Source of the DNA: an uncultured Gammaproteobacteria bacterium
GTDB taxonomy: Bacteria > Patescibacteriota > Patescibacteriia > Magasanikbacterales > GWA2-37-8
Direction of reading: 5' to 3'
Assembly: GCA_964511375.1 (NCBI GenBank)
Contig: CAZEEW010000001.1
Coordinates: 6,512 to 70,511, forward strand
Length of the DNA: 64,000 bases
The notes under the pieces are model-generated. The model was not told where the DNA came from and made no database searches. It saw nothing but the letters and a program-made list of their open reading frames with translations. This document shows positions 40,578-53,656 of the stretch, piece by piece (position 1 is the stretch's first letter; every line of letters begins with the position of its first letter). Made by a program: the position numbers and the translations under genes.

Positions 40578-43535
40578 CTATTCTTTTTTGTTTTCTCCGT
40601 CAAACCTTCTTCTTTTCCCTTTTAGTAACAATCCCACGATTACGCCGGCTGCGCCGCCGCCTAGAGCAGGCAGATATTTATCGCTCATTTCATTATTAGG
40701 TGCTACACCGTTTCTTTCTTTTATTTCCTCGGCTTGTCCCACAACCTTAATATCTTCTTGACTGCGCGGCCAAATCTGCAAACCAGTTTCTGACTTTTCA
40801 AGGATACCCACCACTTCTACCTTGTCTCCTTCAGCGAAATCTTTTTTATCTATTTTAGCTCCTCGTTTGAGGTACACTACGGCCTCCGCTTGACCATCAT
40901 CAATATACACAGAAGTGCTTTTGATTTCGGTAACGTCAGCCACAACTTTTACTAAACTACCCAATATGTCTTCGTTTAACTCATCGATGGTGTGCGGTGT
41001 ACTTGAGACAACATTTTCAACTGATAGCACATCAACATCTTTGGCGCCGCTTAATTTAATTCTTTTCTGTCCGTTCGCTTCGGAAATTATTCCTTGCACT
41101 TCTACTGCATCGCCCACGCTTAACTCCGGAAATAATTTCTTATATTGATAAATTTGAATACCGGCCAGTCCGTCAGTAATGTAAAAATACTGGCTCCCAA
41201 ATACCCCTGGCATGACTGCTACCGTTCCCCTAACTTTCACGCCATAATTTTTTGGTGCTTCTCGTGCCAAAGCCAAACTCATACTATTGTATCCAACACC
41301 AATTTTGCCGCTACCGCTGGATTTACTGGCGCTGGCGGCTGGGGCGATAATTTTTAAGCCTAAAACCTGCGCTAAGTTAGCCTTGCCGGGAGTAGGTTTG
41401 GCGAAAAGCCTCCATTCCTGACCAGCGATACCATAGCTCTGTCCGGGTTGACTTTCTCCAAATTTAACTAGGTCAGCACTAATGTTTTCCGGTGTTAAAA
41501 GTTCCACCTTATCCCCCTTGTTATCTAGATTTAATTTAGTCACTAAACGGTAGAATACTAGATAACTTTGCGGCGCAATAATCGTGTTCTCTGGAAAAAT
41601 GTACGTTTTATTTGTTATGTTCCGAAGTCGCCAACCACTAATATTCACGGGTGTTGACCCAAAATTAAACAGCTCTACAAATTCATTACTATCTGCCCCC
41701 TCTGGGTTAACAAATATCTCACTAATAATTACCGCACTGTTTTTTAGCGACAACCCTCCCCCAATATTTACTTCTACTTTCTTTTCTCCTTTGGTGCCGC
41801 TAGTACTGGTTGCCGTGACTTTAACAATGTATAAACCAGAGGTTGCAAAGGCGTATTCGACTTCACCGCCCCACTGTGTCTTGTCCGGAAATTCCCAGGC
41901 ATATTCAATCTCTCCACCGCGCGGGTCTGCCGAGTCTTCGGCATCAAATACCAGGGCTTCGCCCGGTTCGCCCTGGCTAGGTGCTTTAATCTTCCAAATT
42001 ATTTTGGTTTCGTCAGGAGTAACAGCTTCATTAATTTCACCTGGTGTTGGTTCACTTGACCACTCCCATTTGTTATTTTCAAATCGGTTATAGCTCTCAC
42101 CCTCTGGGGCTTTGTCGTAGGCAACATAATCTGCTAGAAAATTATTAGGTGTGTACAGTCGCAACTCTTCCTTGCTGGAGTTATTTAAAGAAATATTAGT
42201 AATAGTTCTTCTAAAAAACACGATTTTCCCCGGCAAGATTGTTCCGCTTAAAACAAAGTTTTTTGTCGTGTCACCCAGTTTCCAATTTGCTAAATTAATT
42301 TCTTTATCACTAACGTTAATAATTTCAATAAATTCATTCTCCAAATCTGAGCCCGGGGGATTAGCATAGACCTCATTAATTAGTAGGCCACTGAAAGTGG
42401 TGGTCGAAGTGTCCGCTTTGGTTTCGCTTTTATCCTCTGTTTTGTTTTCTATTTTGGGCGGAGTCGCTCCACCACCTCCACCGGTCGGAACCGGACGAGG
42501 AGTTATGATGTTGGCTGCTCCAGAAGTAATTGTTCTGGTAATTGCAAAGCTGCCCTCACCATCATTCCCTCTCGCCAACGACTCATTTTTTTCTGGAGAG
42601 TTTTGTCCACTATATTCTACCTGGTCAACTATTTCACCACCAGGTTTACGCAAAACCACACTGTCTGCATCATTATTTAGGAAACTCTTTGTACCCAAAT
42701 CAAAGTATAGCCAACTTAATCCTGAAATAGTGCCGGTAACCATCTTGCAAGTGGAGGTTGCTTCACGATTATCACAAAGTAAACCGCCCGCCAAATCAAA
42801 GGCGGTGCTAGTAGTATTAAAAAACTCCACCCACTCATTTCCCTCGACCGGATCAGAAACAAATTCATTTATTTTAATAAATTCCCAAAGGTCTAAAATG
42901 CTCGGTGTTGAACTGGGAGTTTCTGGTGTAGACGTTGGTGTCTCGGGCGTGGTAGTGGGCGTGGTAGTGGGTGTTGTAGTCACGACCGAGCCTGACGGTT
43001 CGGTTGAAAAAACACTGTTAATTAAACCAACAGTATTGCCGCTCGAATGTTCTCGCCAATTACTGGCGTCATACACCACAATAAAGGGACTAATTCTTTC
43101 CAAAGAATTATTCGCAGCATTAATAAATGTAAATTGCTCAATAAAATTTCCATTCTCATCCTTTAAGCCAACCTCTTCACCGGACTCATTTAAACTGCTC
43201 CATGAAGAATCAAATACCGAACCCAAAAAACTTGGATAGTCTAATAAAAAATTTTCAGCGTTCTGAGTTATTACAGCGTACTCGCCAGGATTAACTATAC
43301 TGTCAGTTGTACTAACACTTAATCCGTGATTGGTGCCATCTTCCCAAAATTTCCAATCTTTAATGTCTACCGGCTCATTGCCCTTGTTCCATATTTCCAA
43401 CCACTCGTGACCGCTCGCCGCGTAACAACCAAGTTCGTTAATTACAATGTCTGTGTTGGCTGCCCGGGCTAAGCTGAATAAAACAAAAAAACTGCTGATT
43501 ATCCCAACAGTTAATACAAAAAGCTTGTTTTGCAT
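40578..43535 (-). CDS. Large cell-surface protein with four lamin-tail-domain (LTD)-like repeats, Thr/Pro linker and C-terminal membrane anchor
   Basis: Signal peptide. Repeated INE(L/F/V)...G.(E/N)(W/F)(L/V/I)E(I/F/L)(W/F/I)N......(W)(K/R)(F/L) blocks. TTTPTTTPTTTPETP linker. C-terminal LPALGGGAAGVIVGLLL plus KGKRRR. Confidence 0.65.
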   Translation of the reverse strand: MQNKLFVLTVGIISSFFVLFSLARAANTDIVINELGCYAASGHEWLEIWNKGNEPVDIKDWKFWEDGTNHGLSVSTTDSIVNPGEYAVITQNAENFLLDYPSFLGSVFDSSWSSLNESGEEVGLKDENGNFIEQFTFINAANNSLERISPFIVVYDASNWREHSSGNTVGLINSVFSTEPSGSVVTTTPTTTPTTTPETPTSTPETPSSTPSILDLWEFIKINEFVSDPVEGNEWVEFFNTTSTAFDLAGGLLCDNREATSTCKMVTGTISGLSWLYFDLGTKSFLNNDADSVVLRKPGGEIVDQVEYSGQNSPEKNESLARGNDGEGSFAITRTITSGAANIITPRPVPTGGGGGATPPKIENKTEDKSETKADTSTTTFSGLLINEVYANPPGSDLENEFIEIINVSDKEINLANWKLGDTTKNFVLSGTILPGKIVFFRRTITNISLNNSSKEELRLYTPNNFLADYVAYDKAPEGESYNRFENNKWEWSSEPTPGEINEAVTPDETKIIWKIKAPSQGEPGEALVFDAEDSADPRGGEIEYAWEFPDKTQWGGEVEYAFATSGLYIVKVTATSTSGTKGEKKVEVNIGGGLSLKNSAVIISEIFVNPEGADSNEFVELFNFGSTPVNISGWRLRNITNKTYIFPENTIIAPQSYLVFYRLVTKLNLDNKGDKVELLTPENISADLVKFGESQPGQSYGIAGQEWRLFAKPTPGKANLAQVLGLKIIAPAASASKSSGSGKIGVGYNSMSLALAREAPKNYGVKVRGTVAVMPGVFGSQYFYITDGLAGIQIYQYKKLFPELSVGDAVEVQGIISEANGQKRIKLSGAKDVDVLSVENVVSSTPHTIDELNEDILGSLVKVVADVTEIKSTSVYIDDGQAEAVVYLKRGAKIDKKDFAEGDKVEVVGILEKSETGLQIWPRSQEDIKVVGQAEEIKERNGVAPNNEMSDKYLPALGGGAAGVIVGLLLKGKRRRFDGENKKE

Positions 43536-44044: not shown

Positions 44045-44330
44045 ACAACTTATTATTATCTAAGGGTTCGACCGAGTACTGCGTTGGTCTCCCCCTTATT
44101 CTCATGGTTCCTCCTCCGCTCTCTCTTGAACTTCTTCTCTGACGGTGACCGTGGGCCACCGCCAGCACACCAGACGCCTGGCCCCCTCGACAAGGAGGGC
44201 CGTGCCGGCCAGGAAGGCCAGCAACACATAGGCCCCACCGCCGGCCGGGTCAACGAAAAACACCGTCATGTCTTCCCCCTCCCACGCACGCGCGCGGAAC
44301 ACAAAATGATAACAAATCTAAAATGATTTG
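44045..44330. other. GC-rich island (about 65% GC versus about 40% background) with extensive self-complementarity; candidate structured RNA or foreign DNA fragment
   Basis: Local composition and long imperfect hairpin (GACGGTGACCGTGGGCC...GGCCCCACCG...CACCGTC) read directly. ORFs here on both strands overlap and look compositional. Confidence 0.35.
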
Positions 44331-44389
44331 TCCAGTGGTGCGGGAACAACAAGAGAAGATCGTAATTAAAAACATAAAATTTAAGAATT

Positions 44390-44523
44390 TGTATACACTA
44401 GTCTATACAAACTGTGGATAAGTGTGTGCATATTTGTGTATAAATGTGTATAACTTAAAATATTTTGTACAACTTTTTCTCTTAAATTAGCAAAAATAAA
44501 TTTTGTATACACTAGTGTATACA
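44390..44523. repeat. Two copies of a 20-bp palindrome TGTATACACTAGTGTATACA (44504..44523 perfect; 44390..44409 one mismatch) bracketing a DnaA-box TGTGGATAA (44413..44421) in an AT-rich spacer
   Basis: Read directly. Copies are 114 bp apart. Confidence 0.6.
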
Positions 44524-44601
44524 AACACACAAGACTTTTTTGCCTGTTTTTGTTTATTTTTTCTCTTGCTTTAGCTAAAAATAATATAATTTAGTCGACT
44601 C

Positions 44602-44630
44602 TTGACGACAGCAGCGCCCTGTGCTATAAT
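44602..44630 (+). promoter_or_regulatory. Consensus sigma70 promoter TTGACG-17-TATAAT
   Basis: Read directly. Drives the non-coding stretch upstream of the dksA-like gene. Confidence 0.55.
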
Positions 44631-44636
44631 ATATTT

Positions 44637-44935
44637 GTTAGTTCATTGAAAACCACCTCCGAACTGCGACAAAAGAACACGGATTTACAACAGTCCTGAA
44701 AAAATACAGGATAGTGGCAAATCCGTACTACTTCTCGGGTAACCTCATAAACTTTATAGCTAGCGCGTGCCTCTTGTGCACCAGCTGGCACCGAGGAAAT
44801 ACCCACATAAGCGGTCGGAGAACATTCTGCTCAAGCGATGAGCGTCGCCCCAGCCGGGGCTTTAAGTTCTCGCCAGCAGTTTTTTCAAGGGCGAGACCTT
44901 AAAACAAAAATAGCGGGTCATCCGCCCTTTTTTTA
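44637..44935 (+). ncRNA. Candidate structured non-coding transcript or long structured 5' leader (about 300 nt) ending in a hairpin plus T-run
   Basis: No plausible ORF (only an Arg/Ser-rich 62-aa frame). Several nested hairpins (ACGGATTT...AAATCCGT; GCCCC-agcc-GGGGC; CTCGCC...GGCGAG). Terminal GCGG-gtcat-CCGC followed by CCTTTTTTT. Confidence 0.35.
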
Positions 44936-45047
44936 TTGCAAAAACCCGTTTGACAAGCTTATATAAATAAGATAGCATATATCCAATCTGGGGCTTTTTA
45001 AGCTCACAACGGCAGTAAACCCCGTATTTTGATCACTAATATCCAGT

Positions 45048-45434
45048 ATGTCTAAACAAGTAAAAAAAGTTGTAACTGCTTTCCCAATGGATTTCATTAC
45101 CAAAATTACTGAGGTTCTAAACAAGGAAAAGGCTCGCTTAGAAAAGGAGCTGGGAACCATATCTGCGGGTGGAGACAGCGCTAACTTTCCAGAATATGGT
45201 GATAAAGAAGATGAGAACGCTAACGAGGTGGCCGAGTACGCAGCCAACCTAACAATTGAAGAGAGTCTGGAGCGATCATACCGCGACGTCGTTAAGGCGC
45301 TCGCTCGCTTAGAAAAGGGTGAATATGGCGTGTGCCGATATTGTGGCAAGCCAATCGATTCTCGCCGCCTACTTGCCAGACCAACTTCTAGCGCCTGCGT
45401 AGATTGCAAAAAAACCATTACTCAAGAGGTTTAG
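45048..45434 (+). CDS. dksA: DksA/TraR-family C4-type zinc-finger protein
   Basis: Coiled-coil N-terminus and C-terminal CRYCGKPI...CVDC four-Cys motif. Confidence 0.65.
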   Translation: MSKQVKKVVTAFPMDFITKITEVLNKEKARLEKELGTISAGGDSANFPEYGDKEDENANEVAEYAANLTIEESLERSYRDVVKALARLEKGEYGVCRYCGKPIDSRRLLARPTSSACVDCKKTITQEV

Positions 45435-45438
45435 TTAT

Positions 45439-45903
45439 ATGAACGCTAAGGGGCCCGCTTCCGTATATTACTTGTTTTTAAGCGGGCTTTTTTTAATTTT
45501 CGACCAGTCTCTAAAATATTTTGCTTTGCAAAATTTTGATTCCGCACACACATATCTTGGTTTTTTCGGCTGGAAGCCTTTCTTAAACCCCGGCGTTGCT
45601 TTCAGTTTGCCAGTACCACAGCCAATTATTCTCCTTTTTACTATTCCTGTGCTGATTTTTCTGGCATGTCTAATACTAAGGGCGTGGAACAGCAAAACCG
45701 CCCCTCCAACGCACGTGCTTGGACTGTCCTTGGTCTTTTTTGGCGCCCTGTCCAACTTAATTGATCGTCTTATTTTTAAACACACCGTCGACTATCTCCT
45801 TTTATATACTGGCGTTTTCAACGTTGCTGACCTCATGATTATTGCTGGTTTTTTACTTTATCTTTGGATCTCGACCAAAAAGAGGGACGCTCAAAACATC
45901 TAA
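45439..45903 (+). CDS. lspA: Lipoprotein signal peptidase (signal peptidase II)
   Basis: Four TM helices with conserved blocks NPGVAFSL and FNVADL. Confidence 0.8.
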   Translation: MNAKGPASVYYLFLSGLFLIFDQSLKYFALQNFDSAHTYLGFFGWKPFLNPGVAFSLPVPQPIILLFTIPVLIFLACLILRAWNSKTAPPTHVLGLSLVFFGALSNLIDRLIFKHTVDYLLLYTGVFNVADLMIIAGFLLYLWISTKKRDAQNI

Positions 45904-50016: not shown

Positions 50017-51132
50017 CTACTGTCTGATCGGCATCACTATATACAAATAGCCATTTTCTTTAGGGGCCAACTCACAAGGGCTGTCGGCGTTTATAACACT
50101 CAGACTTACTTTTTCTGATTCAATATTATTCAAACCGTCCAATAGGTATCTGTGGTTTAATAAAACCCGCACTGTTTCTCCCTCAGCTTCCCCCTCAAGT
50201 TCTGATCGATAATCGCCGGTTTGTGTCGAAGTCGAGACTATTTCTAGTCCTTCATTTGGTTTAATAGTAAGGTGTACAGCATTTACTCCGCTGGTGGAAA
50301 ACAGGCTGGCCGCCTTTACCTCTTTAATGAGTTTATCTGTTTCCAATTCAATGCTGGCCTTAAAGTCCTTAGGAATAATTTGGCGGTAATCTGGGTATTG
50401 GCCCTCGATCAGCCGAGAAACCATTTGTACGTTGCCATAGTGCAACGCGACCTGACCATCTCCTATTAATACCCTGGCATTTTTTTCATTTTCTAAACTA
50501 TCTTCCAACGAAAGAATGCGGGAGATTTCTACCGCAGTTCTCCCCGGAACAATCACCTTCTTTTCTTCTTCTCCCTGAACTAGATTTATTTTCTTTTCTG
50601 CGAGACGGTAACTATCTGTTGCAGCCATTACCAACTTCTTCGTTTCAACATTAAAACCAAAATATACGCCTGACAGTTCCGGGCGAATATCGTTTTTGGC
50701 CGTGGCTGGAATTACCTGACTTAGACCTCTCTTTAGTTCTCTCGCCTCAACCACATAACCCGTTCCCTCATCTACAGATGGAATAATCGGAAAATCCTCA
50801 GCCGGTGTCCCTTTAATTTTGGTCGAAGATTTTCCACATTCTACTACTAATTCATTATCTTTTAATTCAAAACCTATTTTTTCTTCTCCCAATAGGTTAA
50901 TAAAATCTGCCAGGGTTCTAGCCGGCACGGTAAATGAACCAGGCGCCTCCGTAATCGCTCGAATATTTACAACCGTTGCCATTTCCAGGTTGGTTGCAAC
51001 TACCTCCACTTTTTGATCTTCTGCTTTTATTAAAACATTATTTAAAATTGGCAAATTAATATTTTTACCGGCCACCCCACTTACCAGCATTAAGGCCTTT
51101 GACATGTTCTCCTTAGTGCATGAAAATTTCAT
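50017..51132 (-). CDS. dnaN: DNA polymerase III beta subunit (sliding clamp)
   Basis: About 370 aa, three-domain clamp pattern. Position immediately downstream of dnaA. Confidence 0.85.
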   Translation of the reverse strand: MKFSCTKENMSKALMLVSGVAGKNINLPILNNVLIKAEDQKVEVVATNLEMATVVNIRAITEAPGSFTVPARTLADFINLLGEEKIGFELKDNELVVECGKSSTKIKGTPAEDFPIIPSVDEGTGYVVEARELKRGLSQVIPATAKNDIRPELSGVYFGFNVETKKLVMAATDSYRLAEKKINLVQGEEEKKVIVPGRTAVEISRILSLEDSLENEKNARVLIGDGQVALHYGNVQMVSRLIEGQYPDYRQIIPKDFKASIELETDKLIKEVKAASLFSTSGVNAVHLTIKPNEGLEIVSTSTQTGDYRSELEGEAEGETVRVLLNHRYLLDGLNNIESEKVSLSVINADSPCELAPKENGYLYIVMPIRQ

Positions 51133-52919: not shown

Positions 52920-52949
52920 TGTGGACAACTTGTGGATGACTGTGGATAA
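52920..52949. promoter_or_regulatory. Cluster of three DnaA boxes (TGTGGACAA, TGTGGATGA, TGTGGATAA) at 10-11 bp spacing upstream of dnaA; a divergent rpmH promoter TTGACT-17-TATAGT follows at about 52963..52991
   Basis: Read directly. Classic dnaA autoregulation/oriC arrangement next to rpmH. Confidence 0.6.
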
Positions 52950-53266: not shown

Positions 53267-53656
53267 ATGTTACAAAAAGACAACCGACTAACTAAAGTTC
53301 GAGATTTTAATCTCTTAATGAAATATGGCTCCTGGATAAACGGCCGCCTTTTTAATGTTAAGGCTCTTGAGTTAGCCAAATTTGAGAACTATTTTCCAAA
53401 AATGGAAGATAAAGATAATTTTAAAAAACAGCTTAGAATAGCCGTAAATGTTGGTGTTAAAGTATCCAAAAGTGCAGTGAAGAGATATCGGCTGAAGCGA
53501 CAGGCGAGCGAAGTGGTTCGGCTGCTTCTTAAAGAAAGAAGTTTAAAAAATGGATATTATATATTGATTAATGCAAAGAGTGATGTGTTGGAAAAAGATT
53601 ATCCAGAAATTAGCGAAGAAATTAAATTATTATTAAAAAAGTCGGGTTTAATATAA
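53267..53656 (+). CDS. rnpA: Ribonuclease P protein component
   Basis: Basic about 120-aa protein at the conserved position after rpmH. The basic motif KRYRLKRQASEVVRLLL resembles the RnpA RNR-type region. Confidence 0.65.
   Translation: MLQKDNRLTKVRDFNLLMKYGSWINGRLFNVKALELAKFENYFPKMEDKDNFKKQLRIAVNVGVKVSKSAVKRYRLKRQASEVVRLLLKERSLKNGYYILINAKSDVLEKDYPEISEEIKLLLKKSGLI

Follow-up and report, generated by a model that had tools for sequence, protein, structure and literature searches.

New classes of large structured bacterial RNA are rare, and they have repeatedly opened new biochemistry. 6S RNA acts on RNA polymerase. The raiA motif RNA of Firmicutes and Actinobacteria has the complexity of a riboswitch together with features 'inconsistent' with one, and it typically lacks terminator stems as part of the motif (PMC10861870). 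A 64,000-nucleotide stretch of DNA from contig CAZEEW010000001.1 (positions 6,512 to 70,511; this whole stretch is called the window below) carries a region of about 300 nucleotides (nt) that appears to belong to the same general kind. It lies directly upstream of a gene for a DksA-like protein, the closest relatives of which are found in Candidatus Magasanikbacteria (Patescibacteria, or Candidate Phyla Radiation, CPR), the group to which the host genome belongs. Judged by sequence comparison, the region encodes a real and well-supported new RNA family. With a probability of roughly 0.7, the region is a gene in its own right, whose product is a stable and highly structured non-coding RNA (ncRNA) of an undescribed class, present in Candidatus Magasanikbacteria and close relatives. 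What is new is the RNA family; orphan stand-alone structured ncRNAs as a general kind are already known.

Its closest known counterparts are the large structured ncRNAs of bacteria that have remained orphans, the raiA motif RNA among them, although it has no sequence or structure in common with these. Like raiA, the Magasanikbacteria RNA is apparently stand-alone, occurs in a single copy, has its own promoter and consists of several helices within a few hundred nt. The two are also alike in their highly conserved junction nucleotides and in having a frequent neighbour gene, from which raiA takes its name. They differ in that the present RNA has no sequence or structure match to raiA in Rfam, comes from CPR, ends in a sequence-conserved terminator hairpin and is preceded by a module of DnaA boxes and palindromes. 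6S RNA (ssrS) offers another parallel, being abundant, trans-acting, driven by a strong promoter and often followed by the same neighbour across species; here the neighbour encodes a DksA-type RNA polymerase factor. However, 6S is a rod of about 180 nt with a central bubble and paired ends, whereas the present RNA has a three-way junction and separate hairpins.

A conserved and covarying RNA upstream of dksA

A protein alignment of DksA-like relatives yielded 80 syntenic loci from species-representative genomes. Iterative nhmmer searches that started from the RNA region of the window found a full-length homologue in 57 of these 80, always on the dksA strand and immediately upstream of dksA; weak, divergent copies at the same position in further loci were missed by nhmmer. 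Metagenome contigs were scanned with a degenerate pattern drawn from the most conserved helices, which was meant to remove the bias of choosing loci by dksA. Among the 99 matches (loci L081-L179), 38 were true full-length homologues and 61 were false and were rejected. When 100 sources were searched with a covariance model of the 5' domain, 76 copies emerged, never more than one at a locus and one of them in the window, and the RNA is conserved in about ninety uncultured Magasanikbacteria genomes. Orthologous loci, named in the original prediction as the place where a structured RNA could fail, keep the region, and covariation supports the fold; the proposal is thus not refuted there.

By chance, the scan pattern also matches 83 nt of a prophage gene that are highly conserved (GGTAACCCTTCCGATGCAAC...GGCGGTTAA), so that pattern matches need confirmation by a profile search. 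This stretch accounts for the 61 false metagenome matches and for all 67 matches in viral contigs (L180-L246), none of which is a homologue. Many of the loci in which no copy was detected, a group that includes L057, L070 and L075 (Uhrbacteria), nevertheless have a similar arrangement in front of dksA, in which a strong promoter some 450-500 nt before the gene is followed by a stretch of elevated G+C, a T-run and a second promoter. This arrangement suggests that still more divergent relatives of the RNA occur beyond Magasanikbacteria.

The signals that delimit the RNA are strong. Its promoter agrees with the sigma-70 consensus at 11 of 12 positions, carries the TG of an extended -10 element and is the top match in the 2.5 kb scanned; TATAAT is seen at 44625-44630, where it had been placed before. 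In all 53 aligned homologues a 17-bp spacer is combined with TTGACA (TTGACG in the window's own lineage), and most have the extended -10. At the other end, a G+C-rich, terminator-like hairpin (44913-44925) is followed by CCTTTTTTTA. The hairpin and T-run reported near 44912-44935 are therefore borne out, the hairpin being the inner part of a longer one, P7. Its outer stem is 96% paired, with GC19/CG8/AU3 at one pair, and its 5' strand AAGGGCGAG and loop CCUUAAAA are conserved in sequence. Over the 76 copies, the median terminator hairpin reaches -19 kcal/mol, with 7.5 U in 9 nt. Homologous RNAs are about 298-400 nt long. In the window, the RNA region has 43-56% G+C and the rest of the spacer 23-31%.

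Does the region fold better than expected by chance? Positions 44636-44935 (300 nt) have a folding energy of -100.3 kcal/mol, while 200 dinucleotide shuffles give -74.2 +/- 4.8 (z = -5.49), and none of the 200 folds as well. From the first alignment, RNAalifold predicted 23 pairs, 18 of them with compensatory changes. Run on MAFFT alignments of the whole RNA, it recovered the 5' domain only and nothing for the 3' domain. The covariance model likewise describes the 5' domain, and the structure of the 3' domain was evaluated by mutual information and pair counts on a hand-derived structure. The supported topology consists of two adjacent domains followed by the 3' terminator hairpin.

In the covariance-model alignment of the 5' domain, 84.1% of cells are standard pairs, as against 34-45% when the partners are slid by 1-3 columns, and double changes are found at 30 of 37 pairs (367 cells). 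The covariation score is 0.395, compared with 0.07-0.11 for slid and 0.215 for shuffled partners, and none of 500 shuffles scored as high. For the 3' domain and terminator, 78.9% of cells are paired versus 38-58% when slid, with a covariation score of 0.27 versus about 0.1. The top mutual-information pairs are located in P6, P6a, P4, P3 and the terminator. Fold energy and covariation together bear out the multiple stems that had been noticed between the promoter and the T-run.

The 5' domain is a three-way junction of P2, P3 and P4/P5. In most homologues the conserved UUCAUU of the segment before it is the loop of a terminal hairpin of 4-5 bp (GUAG-UUCAUU-CUAC), followed by a second hairpin, P1b. 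Both have compensating variants, which for the first include GUAG/CUAC, GUGA/UCAC and GUUGA/UCAAC; P1b has been lost in the window's own lineage (window, L001, L002). A consistent pairing partner for the UUCAUU loop was sought and not found. P2 contains a near-invariant ACUGC and a U-G wobble, U44665-G44813, that is UG in 69 of 70 distinct sequences. The main helix of P3 shows double changes at all 14 pairs (for example, AU28/GC27 and CG26/UA25), and its tip is variable, with large insertions in some lineages. The P4/P5 region holds conserved GGGUAAC and UACCC; its helices 5 and 6 are paired at 89% and 97.5%, and one pair occurs as CG40/UA27. In the hairpin of the 3' domain, the two top pairs of P6 are UA34/CG33 and GC37/AU23, and one pair of P6a appears as AU, GU, GC or CG.

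Several finer features were also considered. Mutual information flagged a possible tertiary pair, 44725:44816; it is ambiguous, since the P2 partner of that column gives about as good a pairing and one evolutionary event could account for the signal. The tip of the 3' domain hairpin is a GNRA sequence in about a third of homologues, a share on which docking of a GNRA tetraloop from P6b was rejected as a general feature. Kink-turn and hammerhead-like readings of UGAUGA in P6a, made by eye, were dropped, as the opposite strand lacks the required GA. The sequence conservation of P7 exceeds what pairing alone would need (AAGGGCGAG...CCUUAAAA...UAUCGGG...CGCCCUU; window 44887-44929 and homologues). 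Its internal loop, CC-UUAAAA / UAUC-GG, bears a loose resemblance to an 11-nt GAAA-tetraloop receptor.

Table 1. Positions of the RNA, its upstream module and neighbouring genes within the window
Feature	Position	Strand	Remarks
Upstream palindrome 1 (TTTGTATACACTAGTCTATACAAA)	44388-44411	.	GTATAC enrichment
DnaA-box cluster	44413-44453	-	perfect TTATCCACA at 44413-44421; one mismatch at 44435-44443 and 44445-44453
AT-rich spacer	44454-44501	.	23-27% GC; TTAGCAAAA/TTAGCCAAAA motif; between boxes and palindrome 2
Upstream palindrome 2 (TTTGTATACACTAGTGTATACAAA)	44502-44525	.	directly abuts the -35 hexamer in many homologues
RNA promoter	44602-44630	+	-35 TTGACG, 17-bp spacer, extended -10 TGcTATAAT
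Predicted transcript, about 298 nt	44637-44934	+	predicted start 7 nt past the -10, predicted end in the T-run
5' leader segment	44637-44657	+	conserved UUCAUU
P2, 5' strand	44658-44667	+	44658-61 and 44663-67 pair with 44811-44819; A44662 bulged
P3, long interrupted hairpin	44673-44733	+	44673-77/44729-33, 44680-86/44719-25, 44688-96/44709-17
P4	44737-44804	+	44737-41/44800-04, 44743-46/44793-96; encloses P5
P5 hairpin	about 44757-44790	+	inside P4
P2, 3' strand (GCGGUCGGA)	44811-44819	+	closes the three-way junction
3' domain hairpin	44827-44879	+	P6 44827-31/44875-79; P6a 44836-43/44867-73; P6b 44847-51/44856-60
Terminator hairpin P7	44887-44934	+	44887-93/44923-29 and 44895-99/44915-19; T-run 44928-44934
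Separate promoter-like site for the dksA-like operon	44950-44978	+	TTGACA-17-TAGCAT, 10/12
DksA/TraR-type zinc-finger gene	45048-45434	+	PF01258; genomic context only
lspA	45439-45903	+	PF01252; genomic context only
dnaN	50017-51132	-	
dnaA	51433-52827	-	
rpmH	from 53018	+	
rnpA	53267-53656	+	PF00825; 8.6 kb from the RNA

A stand-alone gene or a leader of dksA

Does the RNA act on its own, or does it serve the genes downstream of it? The original prediction had offered both a stand-alone small RNA and a leader that controls dksA and lspA, two genes it had named correctly, as their Pfam families confirm. Conservation and covariation give strong support to its core, a discrete structured non-coding transcript. 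Of its two options, the stand-alone RNA is now favoured and the leader disfavoured.

The stand-alone gene is favoured because a second promoter is enriched behind the terminator, because an opposite-strand gene separates the RNA from dksA at locus L137, and because L145 has no dksA downstream at all. Sigma-70-like promoters that match at least 10 of 12 consensus positions within 100 nt past the terminator are present in 38 of 53 loci, versus 4.1% of shuffles; for matches at 11 or more positions the figures are 18 of 53 and 0.4%. At L145, the RNA is followed by a small open reading frame (ORF), a G+C-rich stretch and then a BlaI/BlaR-like pair, judged from translations. The region thus shows the features of a stand-alone structured ncRNA gene: a promoter, a terminator, a covarying fold, no conserved ORF and one copy per locus.

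How might such an RNA work? The near-consensus promoter and the strong intrinsic terminator bracket some 300-400 nt, and compensatory changes maintain all domains of the fold. The RNA would be released at the terminator and would act in trans. It would most probably be a protein-bound scaffold or regulator, like 6S, the raiA motif and OLE RNAs, and not a metabolite-sensing leader. The estimate of about 0.7 given above applies to an independent, probably abundant, trans-acting RNA.

A cis-acting leader is an unlikely alternative, with some evidence in its favour. The 5' domain would sense a signal and choose between P6a plus terminator and an antiterminator, in which UCUCGCC (44865-44874) pairs with GGCGAGA (44890-44896), and the choice would set read-through into dksA-lspA. 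The layout is that of an attenuator (1:2 / 2:3 / 3:4), and among 31 sequences the alternative pairing is 78.7% paired versus 30-50% when slid. Antiterminator duplexes reach -17 kcal/mol, with z < -3 in some lineages, and termination alone would not require the sequence conservation seen in AAGGGCGAG, the terminator's 5' strand. The mean z of the duplex energies against shuffles is only -0.8, a value obtained with automatic region picking that missed some sequences, including the window. The covariation of the alternative pairing (0.166) hardly differs from that of shuffles (0.147), 58 of 500 of which score as high, whereas P6a, the competitor of this pairing, does covary. The clade of L027, L016 and L031 lacks the pairing and has a longer, perfect terminator in its stead, and L137 keeps the complementarity despite the intervening opposite-strand gene.

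The RNA can be compared with described terminating riboswitches and attenuators. In both cases an intrinsic terminator comes after a structured domain, and its 5' strand can pair alternatively with a segment further upstream. Here, however, that pairing shows no covariation beyond shuffles and is missing from one clade, a promoter precedes the gene supposed to be regulated, and L137 and L145 break the link between the RNA and dksA. Riboswitches generally regulate genes that have no promoter of their own, whereas a dedicated promoter stands between terminator and dksA in most loci (38 of 53).

Several observations nonetheless weigh against an independent, trans-acting RNA. The genes dksA and lspA follow on the same strand in all genome loci, which were chosen through their DksA-like proteins, and in 32 of the 33 evaluable metagenome copies, although this adjacency can be put down to the conserved block of genes, which runs on to dnaA. 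The 3' strand of P6a, UCUCGCC, complements the 5' strand of the terminator, GGCGAGA, in many lineages. The 5' and 3' ends of the RNA, its abundance and its termination efficiency are predicted, and its putative tie to DnaA is one of neighbouring sites.

The module of palindromes and DnaA boxes

What lies upstream of the promoter is as conserved as the RNA itself, as a comparison of the 300 nt before each copy shows. The order is constant: a 24-bp palindrome, two to four DnaA boxes, an AT-rich stretch carrying TTAGCCAAAA, a second palindrome and the -35 element. The palindrome follows the 24-bp consensus TTTGTATAC(A/G)ACTAGT(G/C)TATACAAA, and only two are found in the window, both in the module. 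GTATAC occurs at 4.8 per kb in the 400 nt before the RNA versus 0.11 per kb elsewhere, a 43-fold enrichment seen with 88 of 89 copies. In 73 non-redundant loci, DnaA boxes occur at 7.0 per kb before the RNA versus 0.29 per kb elsewhere (24-fold). Every one of these 73 loci has at least one box, and 128 of 154 boxes share one orientation.

In three loci, L031, L137 and L145, the second 5' hairpin of the RNA (AAUGUAUACACUUCUGUAUACAAAU, about 35-60 nt into it) is nearly identical to the upstream DNA palindrome. Its sequence gives the impression that, in this sub-clade, a copy of the palindrome has entered the transcribed part.

The surroundings of the module are equally regular on one side. The RNA opens a syntenic block in the order RNA, dksA, lspA, (comM-like), 3D-domain gene, PBP1A, dnaN, dnaA, rnpA, which places dnaN-dnaA-rnpA 6-9 kb away from the RNA and its module. 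On the other side, gene content varies among loci, and the variation sets in exactly upstream of the module. In the window, about 25 kb of uniformly minus-strand genes ends there, and GC skew weakens abruptly at about 44 kb with no clean sign change at 44.4 kb. The window has further DnaA boxes: three lie at 52920-52949, and the space between dnaA and dnaN holds two imperfect ones (51267 and 51318). GC skew and gene orientation did not decide between the module and the boxes that flank dnaA as the mark of the origin.

What is the module for? It may be either a DnaA-regulated control region of the RNA promoter or an origin of replication, or part of one. Since the same module stands before every copy, synthesis of the RNA would probably be set by DnaA together with a palindrome-binding factor, and the level of the RNA would then be tied to the state of replication initiation. 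Any functional link of the RNA with the initiation of replication, or with the DksA-type polymerase factor encoded next to it, is speculative.

Untranslated transcripts beside origins are known from E. coli (mioC/gidA), from the strong promoter of Cori in Caulobacter and from Vibrio (rctA). The present locus is like these in that a strong promoter next to DnaA boxes and an AT-rich stretch transcribes non-coding sequence. It is unlike them in that they are not known to be conserved folded RNAs, and in that the module here is only a candidate origin.

That the RNA is chiefly an origin-associated transcript of this type is doubtful. On this account the module would be the chromosomal origin or half of it, either strong outward transcription or the RNA itself would aid the opening or control of the origin, and the conserved fold would serve stability or the binding of a replication factor. 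The presence of the module before every copy, with its order and box orientation conserved, fits this account. So do the syntenic dnaN-dnaA-rpmH-rnpA block 6-9 kb away, the change of gene content exactly at the module, the end of the minus-strand gene run and the abrupt weakening of GC skew. Against it stand the second cluster of DnaA boxes, which occupies the classical place by dnaA, and the missing sign change of GC skew. Models built on transcription alone leave a covarying fold of 300 nt unexplained.

The variable side of the locus has features of its own. Directly upstream of the RNA region in the window lies the gene for a secreted or surface protein of 985 amino acids (aa) (40578-43535, minus strand) with four lamin-tail domains, one PKD domain and a C-terminal OB/DUF5689 region. 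Several other loci have fragments related to this protein (gene cluster c4), likewise upstream of the RNA. At 44084-44302, an island of 63-75% G+C stands out in a genome of about 40% G+C; its minus strand holds a hydrophobic ORF of 55 aa (MTVFFVDPAGGGAYVLLAFLAGTALLV...) behind a GGAGG-like ribosome-binding site, for which Pfam gives no match. The island is a lineage-specific insertion, since the two closest relatives (L001 and L002) lack it. Unrelated G+C-rich islands occur upstream of the RNA in L005, L012, L022, L042 and L043, and downstream of it in L145.

Known RNA families and the place of the RNA in Magasanikbacteria

Might the RNA be one of the universal housekeeping RNAs, so strongly diverged that it escapes the standard models? 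Foremost among the candidates is RNase P RNA; the others are 6S, signal recognition particle (SRP) RNA and transfer-messenger RNA (tmRNA). A size of 300-400 nt and a strong promoter would fit. Of 35 circular CPR genomes examined by Lui et al. 2021 (PMC8172020), 10 reportedly gave no RNase P RNA at Rfam thresholds. In the same study the diverged forms were recovered with RF00010 at lowered thresholds, down to 5 bits, and they keep 'many conserved features' (PMC8172020). The genome studied here encodes RnpA, so RNase P RNA must exist elsewhere in it, yet none was detected in the 64-kb window. The RNA shares with RNase P RNA, including its diverged CPR forms, the size range, the strong structure and the CPR host, and rnpA is close by.

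The searches speak clearly against such an identity, which is very unlikely. At gathering scores, Rfam 15 returned only tRNAs from the window, and ARAGORN found 7 tRNAs and no tmRNA there. At E <= 10, nothing matched the + strand of an 851-nt region around the RNA. The isolated RNA (311 nt), searched down to 12-13 bits, gave only chance matches of 12-21 bits (microRNA, NiCo aptamer, viral pseudoknot). Nothing was found at the position of the RNA in 40 related loci, ten homologous loci being covered at E <= 5, and permissive searches otherwise produced tRNAs and chance noise of the microRNA type. RF00010 and RF00011 gave no match at gathering scores, nor down to about 12 bits on the isolated RNA. 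There was no match to 6S (RF00013) either, and the RNA, as the original prediction had said, is longer than 6S; its topology differs as well. The Rfam comparison that had been proposed as a check has thus been carried out, and no family matches.

Searches for diagnostic motifs in the 76 copies agree with this. RNase P motifs had been looked for before and reported missing, and neither CR-I (GAGGAAAGUCC) nor CR-V (ACAGAA...GGCUUA) is present within one mismatch in any of the 76. The window does contain GAGGAAAUACC, within P4 and only two mismatches from CR-I. This look-alike was rejected as a lineage-specific coincidence, its AAA being a variable internal loop of 3 nt (CUC, UAA, UAC and others). 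Among the covariation-supported and top mutual-information pairs there is neither an end-to-end helix like P1 of RNase P nor a P4-type long-range helix. The T-arm motif of tmRNA and the SRP domain IV motif (GGAAGCAGCC-like) each occur in one of 76 copies within one mismatch, with no Rfam SRP match. The T-box 12-mer is absent from all 76 within two mismatches, RF00230 gives no match, and the downstream genes are dksA-like and lspA. Nor did full-text literature searches on structured RNAs of CPR and Magasanikbacteria turn up a description of it.

That the region is instead a small protein-coding gene, or a chance structure in an intergenic spacer, hardly deserves consideration. Mechanical ORFs of 62 aa (+ strand, GTG start, 44714-44902) and 60 aa (- strand, 44624-44806) do overlap the region, which qualifies the earlier statement that it has no credible coding frame. 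Across the 76 distinct homologues, however, the longest ORF has a median length of 54 aa, is on the + strand in 43 and varies in strand, position, frame and sequence, which leaves no conserved coding frame. Alignment indels are not multiples of three, substitutions are compensatory in pairs, and the fold z is -5.5.

What would an independent RNA of this kind mean for its hosts? CPR bacteria account for much of bacterial diversity; hardly any have been cultured, and their genomes, which measure about 1 Mb, are stripped of dispensable functions. The retention of an RNA of 300-400 nt with a near-perfect promoter and a complex covarying fold in such genomes points to a likely important role. The family corrects the annotation of intergenic regions that are now unannotated or filled with spurious ORFs, and it can serve as a marker of the origin-proximal region in Magasanikbacteria genomes.

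Its fixed place behind a DnaA-box cluster near dnaA provides a testable lead, either to DnaA-dependent expression or to an origin function. A bolder idea, of low probability, is that the RNA and its invariant upstream module form one functional unit specific to this CPR lineage. Such a unit would be an origin that depends on, or is reported by, an RNA, or else a cell-cycle RNA regulator under the control of DnaA, and it might act together with the adjacent DksA-type polymerase factor. If this is true, it would represent a previously unseen involvement of RNA in the control of replication, in bacteria with minimal genomes.

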